From the NCBI GenBank assembly GCA_963696025.1, contig CAVOII010000009.1:170561-202560 (forward strand): a stretch of 32,000 nucleotides of DNA, written 5' to 3'. Source of the stretch: an uncultured Acidobacteriota bacterium. GTDB taxonomy: Bacteria; Acidobacteriota; Terriglobia; Terriglobales; Acidobacteriaceae. The position numbers and the translations under genes are program-made. Below are positions 4,249-24,945 of this stretch, in pieces. How positions within the stretch are numbered: the first letter of the stretch is position 1; the number at the start of each line of letters is the position of its first letter. The notes under the pieces were generated by a model. It worked only from the letters and a program-made list of their open reading frames with translations, did not search any database and had not been told where the DNA came from.

Positions 4249-5328
4249 ATGGATCATTACTCCATCCTGGACTCCAGTCCGTCCCGGGCAGGGCTGGAAA
4301 CTGTCTTGACTGAGAGCGAGGCCAAGGAATCTGCTTCGCTGCGCGCAGTCTCGCCGGAGCCTCTGCGCTTTCCCGGCGACGACGGTGGCAGGTCGCTCAA
4401 CCATATGGCTCAGCGCGACCTCGATGCCGCATTGCAATTGCTGGCTGAGCGGGCGCAGTACATCACCGGGGCCTCAGGCGCCGCCATCGCATTGCGCCGG
4501 GGCGAGCACATGATTTGTCGCGCCAGTTCGGGAGAATCTGCCCCGAAGCTGGGATCGCACCTGCAAGTCGATTCGGGCCTCTCAGGCGAGAGCGTGCGCA
4601 CCCGGCAGATGCTCTGCTGTGACGATGCCCAAAACGATCCCCGTGTGAATTGGGAGAGTTGCCGGGCGCTGAGGATTGTGTCGGTGGTGGTGATGCCTCT
4701 GGTTCGCGAGCAACAAGTCAACGGAATATTCGAACTCTTATCGGAGAGGGCCCATGCATTCGAGGAACGAGACTTCGCCGCCCTGGAACGCCTGGCCGAG
4801 ATGATCCAGACCGCACTAGATCACGCCGAAGCGACGAAGCTGGTAGAAAATGAATTGATTTCGGCGCCCAGCGCAGCGGCGCCAGGGTCGGGTCAGGCTG
4901 CATACAAAAGTAAACCCGAATCCGATCCGGAGCCGGAGCCTGCAGTTGAAAAGGAAGCGGTGGTCAAGCCCGCGGCAGAGGGCGTCGCTATGCCGCAATC
5001 AGCTTCGGCGGCTACCGAGCCGGACCATGCCGCCTCAGAAGAAGAGCCTGCCGTCGATTCCGTTGCCGTCTTGGTCAGCGAGCGGGGCAACATCGGAACC
5101 TGTCAGGCGTGCGGATTCCCGATCTCCGAAGGCCGGAAGCTTTGCCTCGATTGCGAAGCCGATCAGATTCCTGAGCTGGTTCCGGCCGCGGCCGCAGTGG
5201 TCAATGACATTCCGGAATTTCTCACTGTTCCGGAAAGCAAGAGCTGGTTGCAGTCTCACTTGTACGTGGTTGTCACCATACTCATGGTGGCCGCTACAGT
5301 AATTTTGATCCTCTGGCGCAGCCTGTAA
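4249..5328 (+). CDS. GAF domain protein with C-terminal zinc-ribbon and membrane anchor
   Basis: GAF-like core (ALQLLAERAQYITGASGAAIAL...VVVMPLVREQQVNGIFELL), an acidic/Pro-Ala low-complexity linker, CQACGFPISEGRKLCLDC, then the TM helix LYVVVTILMVAATVILILW. Start is uncertain: TTG 4237, ATG 4249 or ATG 4405. Confidence 0.65.
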   Translation: MDHYSILDSSPSRAGLETVLTESEAKESASLRAVSPEPLRFPGDDGGRSLNHMAQRDLDAALQLLAERAQYITGASGAAIALRRGEHMICRASSGESAPKLGSHLQVDSGLSGESVRTRQMLCCDDAQNDPRVNWESCRALRIVSVVVMPLVREQQVNGIFELLSERAHAFEERDFAALERLAEMIQTALDHAEATKLVENELISAPSAAAPGSGQAAYKSKPESDPEPEPAVEKEAVVKPAAEGVAMPQSASAATEPDHAASEEEPAVDSVAVLVSERGNIGTCQACGFPISEGRKLCLDCEADQIPELVPAAAAVVNDIPEFLTVPESKSWLQSHLYVVVTILMVAATVILILWRSL

Positions 5329-6383: not shown

Positions 6384-9236
6384 ATGATCAGCGAGACCAT
6401 TTCTCACTACCGCGTCCTGCACCAGCTCGGCGGCGGCGGCATGGGCGTGGTGTATGAGGCTGAAGACCTCAACCTTGGCCGTCACGTCGCCCTGAAGTTT
6501 CTGCCGGAGGAATTGGAAAAGGACCCAGCGTCTCTTGAACGCTTCCAGCGCGAGGCGCGGGCCGCCTCCGCTCTGAACCATCCCAACATCTGCACCATTT
6601 ACGAAATTGGACAGGTCGGAGGCCGCTATTTTATTGCGATGGAGCTGCTGGAGGGCCAGACGCTCAGACAGCGTATCGGAAAACAGCCCCTGGAGATCGA
6701 CGTCCTTTTAGAGCTGGCCATCCAGATTTCAGACGCTCTTGACGCAGCTCACGCCAAGGGCATCGTTCATCGCGACATCAAACCTGCGAACATCTTTGTT
6801 ACGACTCGGAATCAAGCGAAGGTGTTGGACTTTGGCCTCGCCAAGCAGACTCTCAAGCCGGAAATTTTGCTGGGTGGCCCGACCCTCGGTTCGGCTGCAA
6901 CGGCGGACACCGTGGGCGGCGACCTGCTGACCAGCCCCGGTTCCACAGTAGGCACGGTCGCTTACATGTCTCCGGAGCAGGCGCGGGGCAAGGAACTGGA
7001 TACCCGCACCGATTTATTTTCTTTCGGCGCCGTACTCTATGAGGTGGCGACTGGCTCGCTGCCCTTCCGTGGTGACACAGCGCCCGTCATCTTCGACGCC
7101 ATTCTCAACCGGCCAGCGGTCGCCCCTGTCCGGCTGAACCCGGACGTTCCGTTCCAACTCGAAGACATCATCAACAAACTTCTGGAGAAGGATCGCGACC
7201 TCCGCTACCAGGGTGCGGCTGAGGTGCGCGCCGACCTGAAACGCCTGAAACGTGATACCGAGTCCGGCGTGACCTCCGCGGCTACAACTTCGTCGGGTGT
7301 TCTGCGGGGGAGAACGGTGCCTCCGGCCGGCCGTCGCAATCTCTGGAACTACGTCGTGATGGCCGTGGTAGTCGTCTCGGTCGTCGGTCTGGCGATGACG
7401 TTTTTCGCTCGCCGTGGCCGCGCCGTGATGACTGAGAAAGACGCGATCCTGCTCACAGACTTCGTCAACACCACCGCCGATCCGGTGTTTGATGGCGCGC
7501 TCAAGAAAGCGCTGGCGGTCGATCTCGAGCAGTCACCCTATCTCAACGTCTTCCCCGAACAGAAGGTGAGGCAGACCTTGCAATTTATGGGTCGCCCACC
7601 CGATGAGCGCATCACCAGCGAGGTAGGACGCGAGGTGTGCCAACGCAATGGCATCAAGGCGATGTTGAATGGCTCGATCGCCAACATGGGAAGCCAATAC
7701 GTGATCAGCCTGGACGCGGTGAACGCGGCCACCGGAGACTCCCTGGCCAGGGAAGAGGTCCAGGCAGGCAAAAAAGAAGATGTGCTGAACTCGCTGCACG
7801 AGGCTGGCTCCGACTTGCGTAGAAAGCTGGGAGAGTCTTTAGGCTCGGTACAGAAATACGACAAGCCTTTGTCCGAGGCCACTACCTCCTCGCTGGAGGC
7901 GCTCAAGGCCCTCAGCCTGGGAGACGCTAGGCACCAGGTCGGCGATGAACTGGCGGCCCTGCCACTTTATCAGCGGGCCGTGGAACTGGATCCGAACTTC
8001 GCCATGGCCTACGCGCGCTTGGGAGCGGTATACAACAACCTGGGTCAAACCGAACTTTCGGAACAGAATCGGCAAAAAGCCTTCGAGTTACGCGACCGCG
8101 CGAGCGAGCACGAAAAGCTTTACATCATGTCACACTACTTCGCCGATTCCGGACAGCTGGACAAGGGAATCACGGCCCTCGAGCTCTACAAGCAGACTTA
8201 TCCGCGAGATTCGATTCCGTACACGAACCTTGCCGCCATTTATAACCAATTAGGCCAGTTTGAGAACGCGCTGGATAACGCCCGGCAGTCAGTCGAACTC
8301 GATCCTGGCGGTCTGAGCGGATATTCCAACGTGGCCAACGCTTACGTCGGGCTCAGCCGATTGGAAGAGGCCAAAGCTACCTTAAACCAGGCTTTGCAGC
8401 GCAAACTTGCCGGATATACCACCCACCTCCAGCTGGGCGGAATCTTATGGCTGCAGAATGACATCCCGGCCATGGATCACGAACTCGACCTGGCAGCAAA
8501 GAGCGGGCCTGCCGGCGAAGCCATCCTCTTTGGATTCGAGGCTGGCATGGCCGCCTTCAATGGACAACTGCGGCAGGCGCTCGATTTCGGACAGAAGAAC
8601 CGAGAAGCTGCCCAGCGGCTCGGCCTGAAAGAGGTGATCGCTAACGAGTACACTCAGGAGGCCGGGGGCGAGGCAATGTTTCTCTACCCCTCCCGGGCAC
8701 GCGACAGTGCGGCACAGGCTTTAAAGATCTCGCAGTCACCCAACGTAGTGCTGAATTCAGCCTTCGCCCTGGCCCTCACTGGCGACGATCAAAAAGCGGC
8801 AAAGTTGGCGGACGACGTTGCCAAAAACCGTCCTTACGACACCCTGGTGCAGTTTGTGAATGTGCCCCTGGTGAAAGCCCAGATTGAAATGAATCATGGA
8901 AATCCTGCGAAGGCGATTGATCTGCTGGACAACGCCATGGTCTATGCCCGCGTGAACTCGAGCGTGTTGTATGTTCGCGCGAATGCATACCTGAAAGCCG
9001 GAAGGGCCGCTGACGCTGTCCAGGCATATCAGCGCGTCCTGGATGTGAAGAGCTTTATTGGCGCCGATCCCGTTGTACCTTTATCCCATCTCGGCATGGC
9101 CCGCGCCTACGCGTTGCAAGGCGATAAGGCGAACAGCCGCGTCGCCTACCAGAACTTTTTCGGCATCTGGAAGAACGCCGACCCAGACATTCCTGTCCTG
9201 CATCAAGCCAAAGCAGAGTACGCGAAGGTACAGTAA
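6384..9236 (+). CDS. Ser/Thr protein kinase with one TM helix and an extracytoplasmic sensor-like domain followed by TPR repeats
   Basis: Kinase motifs [42 protein letters not shown] helix [23 protein letters not shown]. Repeated TPR-like text follows ([26 protein letters not shown], etc.). Confidence 0.9.
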
Positions 9237-18916: not shown

Positions 18917-19756
18917 CTATCCTTCCACATCCGGCGCAATTTCCGGCAGTACGGCGCGCAGCAGAGCCACGAAATCTCCCTGCACTCGCTTGGTGGTTTC
19001 AAGAACCTCTTCGTGATTGAGTACCTGGTCAAGGATTCCTGCCGCCATATTGGTTACACAGGAAATTGCCAGCACCTTCATTCCCATGTGACGGGCTGCG
19101 ATGACTTCGGAGATCGTAGACATCCCTACCAGATCCGCGCCGATCGTACGCAGATAGCGAATCTCGGCCGGAGTCTCATAGCTTGGGCCGGCCAGCGCGG
19201 CATACACGCCCTGATAGACCGTCTTGCCTAGCCTGCTGGCGGCTTGCTGGGCGACTTCGCGATAGGGTTTCCAGTACGCCTGCGTCATGTCAGGAAAGCG
19301 AGGACCAAAGCGTTCGTCGTTCGGTCCGATCAGTGGATTCTGCGCCTGCAGGTTGATATGGTCCGTGATAATAACCAGCGCGCCCTGTTTGTACTCAAGA
19401 CTGACCCCGCCCGCCGCGTTAGTAAGAATCACTGCCCGAATGCCCATTCGGCCGAACACCCGCATCGGGAAAGCGACTTCCTGGGCCGAGTAACCTTCGT
19501 AAAGATGAACACGTCCTTGCATCGCGGCGACGGGAATGTCGCCGGAATTGCCGATCACCATCTGCCCGGCGTGTCCCACCGTTGTCGATCGCGGAAAAAA
19601 TGGAATGTTGGTGTACGGAATGCGCGTTGCATCCGAGAGCTCGTCAGCGAAGCCACCCAGCCCCGAGCCCAGAACAAGTCCGATCTTAGGGCACAGTCGG
19701 GACTGCGAGAGCAGGAACTTCGCAGCCGATTCGGCGTTTGTGAAATCATCAGACAT
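18917..19756 (-). CDS. punA: Purine nucleoside phosphorylase (trimeric PNP/PunA type)
   Basis: GLVLGSGLGGFADEL, TVGHAGQMVIG, MQGRVHLYEGYS, ILTNAAGG, GMSTISEV, VTNMAAG. Confidence 0.88.
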   Translation of the reverse strand: MSDDFTNAESAAKFLLSQSRLCPKIGLVLGSGLGGFADELSDATRIPYTNIPFFPRSTTVGHAGQMVIGNSGDIPVAAMQGRVHLYEGYSAQEVAFPMRVFGRMGIRAVILTNAAGGVSLEYKQGALVIITDHINLQAQNPLIGPNDERFGPRFPDMTQAYWKPYREVAQQAASRLGKTVYQGVYAALAGPSYETPAEIRYLRTIGADLVGMSTISEVIAARHMGMKVLAISCVTNMAAGILDQVLNHEEVLETTKRVQGDFVALLRAVLPEIAPDVEG

Positions 19757-20095
19757 GAGACAGCGGTTAACTCCCCGTCTTTAAGTTCCTACCTCGGAAT
19801 CCGGCATTCTACCCGATGCTGGAGCGATGTAGGCACGTACACGTACAGGCCCGAACGGGCACAGCCGGGCTGGGACGCCCGCGCCTACATCAACAATAGA
19901 TTTCAGGACAAACTCCGAAGCCACATCCAGCGCGGTTTTCGCTGAGATTTTCACAATTCCGTAACAATCCTCTCTCCAGGCATCCCAAGGACGCCTGCGC
20001 ATGGATGCTCACAAAAACTCGCCGCCGAGGAGTCGTTGCCCACCTAGCATCCGCGACCTGCACAATATCTGCTGCACATGGCTGTGGAAGGCCTG

Positions 20096-20136
20096 CACTC
20101 CATTGCAAGCAAAGAAGATGCAATGTCGTGTTTTTT
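20096..20136 (+). terminator. Orphan Rho-independent terminator candidate
   Basis: CACTCCATTGCA (20096-20107) pairs with TGCAATGTCGTG (20119-20130): 7 bp, a 2x2 internal loop, then 3 bp, with an 11-nt loop. It is followed immediately by T6 (20131-20136). No annotated plus-strand gene lies upstream. Confidence 0.5.
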
Positions 20137-20171
20137 ATTGACTCTAGAAATGAGAAGAGTAAAAACATACT

Positions 20172-20502
20172 CGTTCTTTGACAGCTTCTGAAGTTTACCC
20201 GGTTGGTGCGGCGTCCGGGGCTCAAGCGAAGTCACCCTCTGCATTGCAAAATGACCTGAGGGAAGGCAAGCGAGGGTCTATAGCAAAGCGCTGGTCGAGG
20301 CGAACAAGAAGATATGTTGAAGGCAAGATAGGATCCCGAGGCGTCAGACTGGTTTATCCGGTTGGCGGCAAGCCCGGAGCCCGAGTGATGATCGCGCGTA
20401 GCGGCCCGCAAGGGAAGCAACGAGAGCAGGTCAGCGAGGGTCTAAAAGCGAGCTACTGGCCGAGACGAATGAGTCTAACATCACCTCGGGATTCTTATTT
20501 TT
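20172..20502 (+). ncRNA. Candidate structured ncRNA with two diverged tandem ~100-nt modules (family unassigned)
   Basis: Module A spans 20193-20294 and module B 20352-20459. They share GTTTAYCCGGTTGG and AGCGAGGGTCTA. The first stem shows a compensatory change (CCCGG/CCGGG vs TCCGG/CCGGA). Module B has a GCAA tetraloop hairpin and an 11-bp long-range helix (20380-20390 with 20479-20490), followed by a T-rich tail. An AT-rich promoter-like segment lies upstream (TTGACT 20138-20143). Confidence 0.4.
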
Positions 20503-20593
20503 GGCGACTCGTGGTTAGTGGCCAGTCGATTGCGGCTCGACCGCCCTTCCCCCATACTGGTTACTAAGAACCAGCGCTGACCACTAGCCTTTT

Positions 20594-21274
20594 TTATGGT
20601 CCTTGCAATATCTGCAGTTTGTCACCCGTCACCAATCGCGCGCGATAAATGGTGTTGATCGCCTCCACCTCCGCCACCGCATCTATGTTCAGGTCGTAGG
20701 CTCCACGCGGCAAGTTCTCTGCAAAAGTGATCTCGAAATCGATGGTATTTTTGCTCAACGTGAAGTGCTGATAGCCAATCGCGGTGGCTCGTCCAATCTC
20801 ATTCACCGCCAGCGCGATTACCGTAAGGTCGAAGTCCTGCCCGGTCTGATTTGATAGCTTGATGGCGCACTCCACTCTTTGCCCCGTGATCCTGGGATAT
20901 CGGCTCCACTGCAGCAACAGCGGCGCCACGATGTCCAACTCCAACGCCTGGGTTCGCTGATGGGGCGGCTTGGCACTATCGGTGGCCGCCACTCCAAAGT
21001 GAAACTGGCCGCCTTCGGTTGGGATACCGCTCAGAATTCCGTCGTCGCTCAAGGTTATGCCGTGAGGCAGCGCACCGTTGCTCACTTCCCACTTGAATGG
21101 CGTGATCCCTCCCCTGGCCTCCAACTGGTAGCGGTACGGCTGCCGCAGAAAACCCTTCGGCAGAGAAGCGGTCTGGATCACAATTTTCTCGCCTTCGGAC
21201 GCGCCGGATTGGCCCAGCGAAGTGCCTGCCAGTGCTAGCGCCACGACAACAGCTGCTGTCATCTTCATGAACAT
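20594..21274 (-). CDS. Secreted protein with a putative Ig-like (He_PIG / cadherin-like) domain
   Basis: Signal peptide MFMKMTAAVVVALALAGTSLG. LPKGFLRQPYRYQLEARGGITPFKWEVSNGALPHGITLSDDGILSGIPTEGGQFHF matches the 'putative Ig domain' pattern. It lies 9 nt downstream of the kinase gene. Confidence 0.65.
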   Translation of the reverse strand: MFMKMTAAVVVALALAGTSLGQSGASEGEKIVIQTASLPKGFLRQPYRYQLEARGGITPFKWEVSNGALPHGITLSDDGILSGIPTEGGQFHFGVAATDSAKPPHQRTQALELDIVAPLLLQWSRYPRITGQRVECAIKLSNQTGQDFDLTVIALAVNEIGRATAIGYQHFTLSKNTIDFEITFAENLPRGAYDLNIDAVAEVEAINTIYRARLVTGDKLQILQGP

Positions 21275-24854: not shown

Positions 24855-24945
24855 AGCCTCAGAGAGGCGGCATAGTTTAGCCCCGGACGTAAGTCCGGGT
24901 TAGGCATGGGAAAAAGGACAGAGTCCCGTAGGGACGGCAGAAGAG
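24855..24945. repeat. REP-like intergenic element with GNRA-capped hairpin
   Basis: CCCGGAC-GTAA-GTCCGGG (24882-24899) and GTCCC-GTA-GGGAC (24923-24935). Confidence 0.55.

Follow-up and report, generated by a model that had tools for sequence, protein, structure and literature searches.

A new family of structured RNA

In a stretch of 32,000 nucleotides (nt) from an uncultured Acidobacteriota bacterium (assembly GCA_963696025.1, contig CAVOII010000009.1, positions 170,561 to 202,560; hereafter, the window), positions 20171-20503 of the plus strand are an independent gene for a structured noncoding RNA (ncRNA) of approximately 330 nt, which belongs to a new family. The family is absent from Rfam 15 and from the literature that we searched, and is best described as a new RNA class. 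The window was assigned to Terriglobales via homologues of its PunA protein. An earlier examination of the nucleotide letters (the sequence-only reading) had drawn attention to a gap of about 840 nt between punA and an immunoglobulin (Ig)-like gene, and had proposed that the gap holds a stand-alone RNA of about 330 nt, made of two tandem modules, that is not obviously a 5' leader. The gap measures 837 nt (19757-20593), and the proposal of a stand-alone RNA holds: the gene has a predicted promoter and a U-tract of its own and no fixed neighbour.

Two covarying hairpins

We derived a consensus structure with RNAalifold, supplemented by mutual information, from an alignment of 108 sequences (alignment A3), and counted its 103 proposed pairs against two controls, namely, partners slid by 1-3 columns and 500 shuffles. 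The structure consists of two long, rod-like hairpins, arm A (module A, ~150 nt) and arm B (module B, ~165 nt), joined by a 5-nt linker (Table 1). A standard pair is formed in 97.9 per cent of the alignment cells, as opposed to 37-47 per cent with slid partners. The covariation that the sequence-only reading had proposed to test in related genomes is present: 40 of the 103 pairs are changed on both sides (13-23 with slid partners), and double-sided changes are found in 574 cells (51-148 with slid partners). Not one of the 500 shuffles attains any of the observed pairing measures. Specifically, across the 108 sequences, pair 20335/20490 is CG in 62 and UA in 45, pair 20347/20475 is GC in 48 and AU in 39, pair 20349/20473 is CG in 52 and UA in 45, pair 20244/20251 is UA in 73 and CG in 25, and pair 20237/20260 is CG in 78, UA in 16, and GC in 4. 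One helix (20185-89/20307-11) was added from mutual information (GC 40, CG 34, UA 16).

The structure also fixes the strand. Twenty-one pairs are predominantly G-U or U-G, where the opposite strand would give A-C, and the folding energy compared to that of dinucleotide shuffles has a z of -2.7 on the plus strand and of -0.08 on the minus strand. The preference of the sequence-only reading for the plus strand was correct.

Several helices of that reading did not survive. Its first hairpin, drawn as CCCGG/CCGGG in module A and TCCGG/CCGGA in module B with a compensatory change between them, is replaced by long-range partners. In module A, C or U at 20198 covaries with G or A at 20300 (CG 52, UG 38, and UA 15 in the 108 homologues), while G20219 is invariant; in module B, C at 20357 occurs in two sequences, both of which have G at 20465 and retain A20378. 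Likewise, the rare changes G20201A and G20360A, found in three sequences each, have their compensating changes at 20296 and 20461, with C20216 and C20375 unchanged. Because the first hairpin is unsupported, the CCGG motifs at 20215-18 and 20374-77 are left unpaired in an internal loop. The 11-base-pair (bp) closing helix proposed for module B (20380-90/20479-90) is paired in 64 per cent of the cells and shows no covariation, and the real closing helix is 20330-41/20484-95. Taken jointly, the three helices of the sequence-only reading show no covariation above that of shuffles. Its second hairpins fared better: they are right in outline, and the module B version (GC-[GG/AA]-CCC-GCAA-GGG) is correct, but the 18-nt loop assigned to module A is not a loop, as CCCUC/GAGGG encloses a 4-bp stem and a GCAA tetraloop (20246-49).

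The tips of both arms carry a GNRA tetraloop in 108 of the 108 sequences. The loop of arm A is GCAA, GCGA, GAAA, or GUAA, and that of arm B is GCAA in 105 of the 108. Several lineages have a tip of arm A that is longer by 40-55 nt and still capped by GNRA; such apical insertions, located at the equivalent of ~20242-20269 and bearing GCAA or GCGA loops, were seen in loci L132, L134, L162, L230, L235, L228, and L236. No covariation of GNRA loop identity with candidate receptor loops was found among the 108 sequences. No internal loop exceeds ~7x7 nt, and some bases of that largest loop are probably paired. Pairing of one arm with the other in a domain-swapped form was ruled out, since C20198 would then oppose A20465 in 52 sequences, whereas its intra-arm partner compensates.

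Duplicated arms and their invariant core

The two tandem modules had been recognized earlier from common blocks, and both blocks, GTTTAYCCGGTTGG and AGCGAGGGTCTA, are indeed present twice. In the 32-kb window, GTTTAYCCGGTTGG is found only at 20193 and 20352 (0.34 occurrences expected by chance at ≤2 mismatches) and AGCGAGGGTCTA only at 20269 and 20433 (0.14 expected by chance). A repeat finder and pairwise alignment delimit two modules of ~160 nt with 74 per cent column identity. The cores of arms A and B are 56 per cent identical within a genome and 56 per cent identical between genomes, and orthologous arms are 81 per cent (A-A) and 83 per cent (B-B) identical. The equality of A/B identity within and between genomes implies that the duplication predates the sampled Terriglobales radiation and that the arms have not been homogenised.

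The core that is invariant in both arms comprises GUUU.YCCGGUUGG pairing with CUGGYCGAGRCGAA, a free CCGG internal loop, and AGGGUCU. In each arm the core helix has a bulged A and a run of wobble pairs, of which there are four in arm A and three in arm B, where 20361/20460 is G-C (the strands are GGUUGG/CUGGUC in arm A and GGUUGG/CUGGCC in arm B). The palindromic CCGG is invariant and unpaired, and faces UAUA in arm A and AAA(A) in arm B. More generally, conservation is highest in internal loops, in bulges, and in non-Watson-Crick runs, and at these most conserved nucleotides the arms are identical.

In both arms the unpaired CCGG lies 12 nt downstream of the wobble run (20199-20220 and 20358-20378), and these stretches read G2-U2-G2-N1-3-G2-N5-7-G2. 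They may form a two-tier G-quadruplex or a CCGG-CCGG kissing contact; covariation is uninformative there because the stretch is invariant.

Boundaries of the gene

Conservation across genomes starts at ~20130-20133, with the T-tract (20132-35) of the predicted promoter. Both promoter elements noted in the sequence-only reading are present, TTGACT at 20138-43 and TAAAAA at 20160-65, separated by a 16-nt spacer. TTGAC (20138-42) is invariant in 108 of the 108 homologues, and T20160, A20161, and A20164 are near-invariant. Conservation resumes at T20171 with a near-invariant TCGTTCTTTGACA, and it collapses past 20503, where the columns look random. Among the matches lying inside contigs (query, 20130-20510), query positions 1-10 contain 210 of the homology starts, and query positions 367-381 contain 218 of the homology ends.

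Judged from this conservation, the RNA is predicted to be driven by its own sigma-70-type promoter and to begin at ~20171-20173, ~6-8 nt past the -10 box. Its 3' end probably lies inside the U-tract (20496-20503), the T-tail that had been noted after the last helix. The U-tract and the 12-bp, G+C-rich helix that closes module B jointly look like an intrinsic terminator. A simple consensus scan for promoters and terminators made no call at this locus: the promoter was passed over because its -10 box is weak, and the terminator because its 'loop' is all of module B. The limits of conservation coincide with the promoter and the U-tract, which argues for a self-contained transcription unit. The locus has the features by which stand-alone bacterial ncRNAs are generally recognized, that is, a promoter and a terminator of its own (both predicted), conservation confined to the unit, and a structure supported by covariation.

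Table 1. Features of the RNA locus in the window.
Feature	Coordinates	Strand	Basis and details
punA, purine-nucleoside phosphorylase	18917-19756	-	PF01048
Promoter (predicted)	20132-20165	+	T-tract 20132-35; -35 TTGACT 20138-43; 16-nt spacer; -10 TAAAAA 20160-65
RNA, ~330 nt	20171-20503	+	Limits drawn from conservation
Module A, long irregular hairpin	20173-20324	+	RNAalifold consensus and pair counts
Module A helices	20173-82/20316-24; 20185-89/20307-11; 20193-209/20288-305; 20213-14/20283-84; 20219-23/20274-78; 20226-27/20270-71	+	Consensus
Module A apical helices	20235-40/20257-62; 20242-45/20250-53	+	Consensus; GCAA tetraloop 20246-49
Module A core helix	20193-209/20288-305		Bulged A20298; four consecutive G.U pairs 20202-05/20292-95
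Module A further helix (probable)	20231-33/20265-67	+	By analogy with module B
Linker AAGAU, 5 nt	20325-20329	+	Unpaired in consensus; conserved as ARGAU
Module B, long irregular hairpin	20330-20495	+	RNAalifold consensus and pair counts
Module B helices	20330-41/20484-95 (closing helix, terminator stem); 20343-49/20473-79; 20352-73/20448-70; 20379-82/20438-41; 20385-86/20434-35	+
Module B apical helices	20390-93/20429-32; 20397-402/20417-22; 20405-07/20412-14	+	GCAA tetraloop 20408-11
Module B core helix	20352-73/20448-70		Bulged A20463; U.G, U.G, G.U in a row at 20362-64/20457-59, with G-C flanks
U-rich tail UAUUUUUG	20496-20503	+	Consensus U-W-W-U-U-U-U-U; column counts
He_PIG/Ig-like gene, 226 aa	20594-21274	-	Domain match

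Homologues in Terriglobales

The first homologues came from contigs that bear close relatives of punA (L005 and L007). The element of L005 is 88.6 per cent identical and has the synteny of the window, and that of L007 is 82.5 per cent identical over window positions 20055-20501 but is flanked by different genes. A search pattern was then built from positions common to both modules and three sequences (CCGGTTGG N50-80 GGGTCT N8-20 CTGGNCGAGNCG) and run on a collection of species-representative genomes, a metagenome collection, and viral contigs. It matched at least 120 times in the genome collection, at least 120 times in the metagenome collection, and not once in the viral contigs.

Full-length status was judged by nhmmer with window positions 20130-20510 as the query. 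The whole element, from promoter through U-tract, is present in ~107 of the 120 genome loci listed and in 78 of the 120 metagenome loci listed (E = 1e-52 to 1e-92). Thus, full-length homologues in genomes and metagenomes, which the sequence-only reading had proposed to seek, are abundant in Terriglobales and soil metagenomes among the matches listed, and the two-module architecture is the rule and not a quirk of one genome. In the 108-sequence alignment, the homologues are 71-95 per cent identical to the window (median, 79 per cent).

Among the 120 listed genome matches, 118 are labelled Terriglobales, Terriglobia, Acidobacteriaceae, Acidobacteriales, Acidobacteriota/Acidobacteria, or Sulfotelmatobacter or Acidoferrum metagenome-assembled genomes (MAGs). 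A match in Aurantimonas (L068, 7509-7623) was discarded as due to chance, as it fits the pattern and has no further homology. A contig labelled Binatia (L121) carries a full-length copy scoring 232 bits, which suggests a mis-binned Terriglobales contig. Within the reach of the search pattern, the RNA appears to be restricted to Terriglobales, and its distribution indicates vertical inheritance across this order of Acidobacteriota.

Most genome assemblies have one pattern-matching locus, and a few among the matches listed have two (L104/L106, L025/L095, and L050/L075); in two MAGs (L104/L106 and L025/L095) both loci are full length. Some copies are irregular. About 700 nt downstream of the full gene in L044 is an extra truncated copy (7655-7859) with arm B only, which is devoid of the 5' strand of the closing helix. 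One metagenome contig (L148) has two full copies in opposite orientation (672-1022 and 4771-5137), both with single-base deletions resembling long-read errors. In L219 (2-149, minus strand), where the contig ends within the RNA, the 5' region AAACGTCCCATAAGACTTTCGTGAGGGG... departs from the otherwise invariant UCGUUCUUUGACA, and this copy may represent a divergent subfamily or a rearranged copy.

Neither a known family nor a different kind of element

The Rfam 15 library holds 4227 models, including 6S, Ms1-type, signal recognition particle (SRP), RNase P, transfer-messenger RNA (tmRNA), Acido-1, Acido-Lenti-1, and riboswitch models. At the gathering threshold, a covariance-model (CM) scan gave no match within 20100-20600, and at E ≤ 10 the region and two divergent homologues returned only chance-level microRNA and long-noncoding-RNA matches. 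This agrees with the sequence-only reading, in which none of the families considered could be recognized by eye. ARAGORN found no transfer RNA or tmRNA, and the literature, searched both by keyword and for literal sequence strings in full text, yielded no paper.

The pattern of change among homologues is not that of a protein gene. In 492 of the 496 indels scored against the window, the length is not divisible by 3; variability per frame position (0.134, 0.124, and 0.111) has no third-position excess, and the longest stop-free stretch shifts frame and strand among homologues. With the frame broken by indels, no codon periodicity, and no Pfam match, a coding gene or pseudogene was rejected, and with it the decayed protein gene that the sequence-only reading had named as a refutation of its proposal. 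Fold energy, the G-U pairs, and the changing synteny spoke against a minus-strand element or a punA leader, and both readings were dropped. A mobile repeat or miniature inverted-repeat transposable element (MITE) was rejected because there is usually one pattern-matching locus per assembly and no other copy in the 32-kb window; the homology boundaries match the promoter and the terminator, and no terminal inverted repeats were found.

That the element is anything other than an independent RNA gene, be it a punA 5' leader, a punA antisense element, the decayed remnant of a protein gene, or a MITE, is therefore extremely improbable in our view. In the window the RNA does lie upstream of punA on the opposite strand and is overlapped by a 129-codon open reading frame (ORF; 20178-20567), a few genomes have two copies, and many contigs end inside the RNA. 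However, punA adjoins the RNA in just 14 of 107 loci among the matches listed, fold energy and the G-U pairs leave no room for the minus strand, every frame is broken by indels, the loci are mostly single and have neither terminal repeats nor viral matches, and contig breaks are expected where co-occurring species have long identical stretches. The 129-aa product of the overlapping ORF has no Pfam match.

Hints of high expression

A minority of contigs in the metagenome collection, among the matches listed, carry the RNA without its promoter and with unrelated flanks. In these fragments homology starts at query positions 54-90, and it starts within positions 11-53 only once (L219, position 40). 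The fragment is embedded in eukaryotic large-subunit (LSU) ribosomal RNA (rRNA) in L130, joined to tmRNA in L140, and joined to bacterial LSU rRNA in L244. The flanks of two chimeric contigs had no BLAST match in E. coli genomes, and hence they are not enterobacterial-like rRNA. The simplest explanation is that the chimeric contigs stem from metatranscriptomes in which the RNA was sufficiently abundant to co-assemble with rRNA and tmRNA. From this we infer that the RNA is probably abundant and highly expressed.

Promoter-less fragments fused to unrelated sequence were also observed in L150, L155, L159, L179, L194, and L209, the last of which has two partial copies in inverted orientation. Approximately 27 of the 120 listed metagenome matches and several genome matches lie at contig ends (L002, L003, L039, L060, L061, L084, L096, L100, L109, L110, L125, L250, and ~27 of L128-L247), and assembly breaks within the RNA are far commoner than chance. 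The breaks are likely caused by long identical stretches among co-occurring Terriglobales, as with rRNA genes.

Possible functions

We tentatively propose, at somewhat less than an even chance, that the RNA is a protein-binding regulatory or sequestering RNA of a ribonucleoprotein with two equivalent arms, by analogy with the logic of 6S, Ms1, or CsrB. Two copies of one partner protein, or a dimer of it, would dock on the duplicated arms as on equivalent platforms; the invariant internal loops, the bulged A, and the G.U run would form the recognition surface; and the covarying helices would act as spacers. RNA polymerase would be one candidate partner. A protein-binding role is favoured because the strongest constraint falls on internal loops, the bulged A, and the wobble run, and is duplicated in both arms. 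Furthermore, an RNA that is nearly all helix has no obvious seed for mRNA pairing, and the lack of a downstream gene and of an expression platform sets this one apart from riboswitches as usually understood.

Several points weigh against this proposal. A core that binds a ligand or catalyses a reaction, or one that makes tertiary or quaternary RNA-RNA contacts, would lead one to expect extreme sequence conservation just as much. A large central bubble of the 6S type is missing from both arms, and the variable length of the module A apex means that the tip of that arm is not at a fixed distance. Because invariance precludes covariation in the core, the evidence that it pairs, G.U run included, comes from compensating changes beside it in few sequences. 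Finally, the metatranscriptome origin of the chimeric contigs was deduced from their composition and not from sample metadata.

Among the closest analogies are RNAs that bind RNA polymerase. 6S RNA is an abundant, housekeeping-type RNA that binds RNA polymerase holoenzyme, with pRNA synthesis, and has no fixed neighbour in many lineages; it is ~180 nt long and forms a single rod with a poorly conserved sequence, in which closing and terminal helices flank a large central bubble. The new RNA resembles 6S RNA (SsrS, RF00013) in being a stand-alone, largely double-stranded, rod-like molecule with its own (predicted) promoter, and in its presumed abundance. It differs in having two ~150-nt rods, internal loops no larger than ~7x7 nt, extreme conservation, and no CM match at E ≤ 10. 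Membership in the 6S family was rejected on the lack of a CM match, the lack of a central bubble, and the presence of two rods versus one. Ms1 RNA of Actinobacteria is ~300 nt long, binds RNA polymerase core, and was missed by homology searches (PMC9130861), which went on for years and included CM searches. It has a central bubble and short terminal hairpins (PMC9130861) and is confined to Actinobacteria. Like Ms1, the new RNA, at ~330 nt, is close to 300 nt long, lineage-restricted, highly structured, and stand-alone; unlike Ms1, it has tandem duplicated arms, and it has no sequence or CM similarity to Ms1. Ms1 nevertheless provides a precedent for a clade-specific functional analogue of 6S.

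Style of construction, in contrast to sequence, may link the RNA to SRP RNA. Helix 8 of 4.5S/SRP RNA is a long GNRA-capped hairpin whose small, purine-rich symmetric and asymmetric internal loops form a protein-binding surface, and we take the tip of module B (GC-[GG/AA]-CCC-GCAA-GGG) to resemble it in style. The new RNA has no SRP consensus sequence and no match to SRP models.

A more far-reaching reading is that the RNA is a new, abundant, Terriglobales-specific housekeeping or regulatory RNA, either a functional counterpart of 6S and Ms1 whose two duplicated arms would capture RNA polymerase or some other global regulator, or an RNA that self-assembles via its GNRA and CCGG loops. We consider this possible but, on balance, doubtful. 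If true, the RNA would join a very short list, whether as a 6S/Ms1-type regulator or as a self-assembling RNA.

It is unlikely, in our judgement, that the RNA consists of tandem ligand- or ion-sensing aptamers, or is a ribozyme, acting in trans with no downstream gene; ligand-binding domains in tandem were the alternative raised by the sequence-only reading. The two homologous tandem domains do recall tandem-domain riboswitches (glycine and NAD+-I, the latter being the nadA motif from Acidobacteria), in which two homologous domains occur per transcript (PMC6859854, PMC7297122). The likeness extends to invariant cores combined with covarying helices. Yet a tandem riboswitch belongs to the 5' leader of a gene that it regulates through an expression platform, and its domains measure ~50-100 nt, whereas the new RNA ends at its own putative terminator, has no downstream gene that it could control (the next gene is convergent or variable) and no expression platform, and consists of ~150-nt rods. 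Each arm is an unbranched rod and not a junction or pseudoknot pocket, and no riboswitch family in Rfam 15 matches even weakly. Runs of G.U wobble pairs are known metal-binding sites, which speaks for the aptamer or ribozyme alternative.

A trans-acting small RNA (sRNA) that pairs with mRNAs through short complementary seeds, perhaps with the help of a chaperone, is also unlikely. Such a role would suit a stand-alone gene with its own promoter, a U-tailed terminator, and no fixed neighbour, and small conserved unpaired stretches do exist (the ARGAU linker and internal-loop purines). However, the 330 nt are almost wholly paired (103 pairs) and have no extended accessible seed, and invariance is located in the helical and internal-loop cores of both arms, which is atypical of seed-based sRNAs. 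The latter evolve quickly outside the seed.

Improbable, too, is assembly by RNA alone, in which the GNRA and palindromic CCGG loops would make contacts between arms or molecules and produce dimers or multimers like those of ROOL, GOLLD, OLE, and raiA. The retention of GNRA at both tips in 108 of 108 sequences, although the loop identity varies (GCAA, GCGA, GAAA, or GUAA), and of an invariant, unpaired, self-complementary CCGG opposite UAUA or AAA(A) in both arms would fit such contacts. Against them, loop type and candidate receptor do not covary, the length of the module A arm varies by 40-55 nt, and the base-to-base linkage of the arms would make intramolecular loop-receptor docking geometrically unlikely.

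Whatever its role, the new RNA joins the lineage-specific orphan structured RNAs, which include Acido-1, Acido-Lenti-1, and Bacteroidales-1, as well as the large OLE, ROOL, GOLLD, and raiA RNAs (PMC2864571). Like them, it is clade-restricted, was found by conservation and covariation, and has a well-supported structure with no function assigned; unlike members of a shared family, it has no homology to any of them (no Rfam match in the region). The constraint on it (71-95 per cent identity over ~330 nt across the order, with dozens of invariant positions and a core duplicated long ago) resembles that on RNase P RNA or tmRNA more than that on ordinary sRNAs. Terriglobales are one of the dominant bacterial groups of acidic soils and peat; few soil bacteria are as abundant or as hard to work with, and their RNA biology is almost uncharted. 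The coordinates, the structure model, and the 108-sequence alignment form a basis for partner hunting and for a new Rfam family, and the RNA could serve as a marker of Terriglobales activity in soil metatranscriptomes.

Genomic neighbourhood

In the window the gene that follows the RNA is convergent. The neighbours vary by clade among the matches listed, with punA in 14 loci, a carboxyltransferase in 33, JAB/CysM (cysteine-synthase cluster) in ~20, and others elsewhere; across the same loci no conserved protein neighbour was found, only clade-specific synteny. The order He_PIG-RNA-punA is kept in relatives whose PunA is 83 per cent identical.

The ~370 nt that separate the punA start codon from the RNA promoter (19757-20130) are probably the promoter and leader of punA. 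They contain an inverted repeat with 12-nt arms (19826-37/19880-91) and a direct repeat, GGACGCCYGCGC, at 19873 and 19989, and have no Rfam match; their conservation extends to the close relative L005 and not to L007. Elsewhere, an Acido-Lenti-1 motif (RF01687) of 46 nt, unrelated to the RNA, lies at 24855-24900 on the minus strand (42.2 bits versus a gathering score of 37; E = 1.7e-6) and is the sole Rfam match at the gathering threshold across the 32-kb window.

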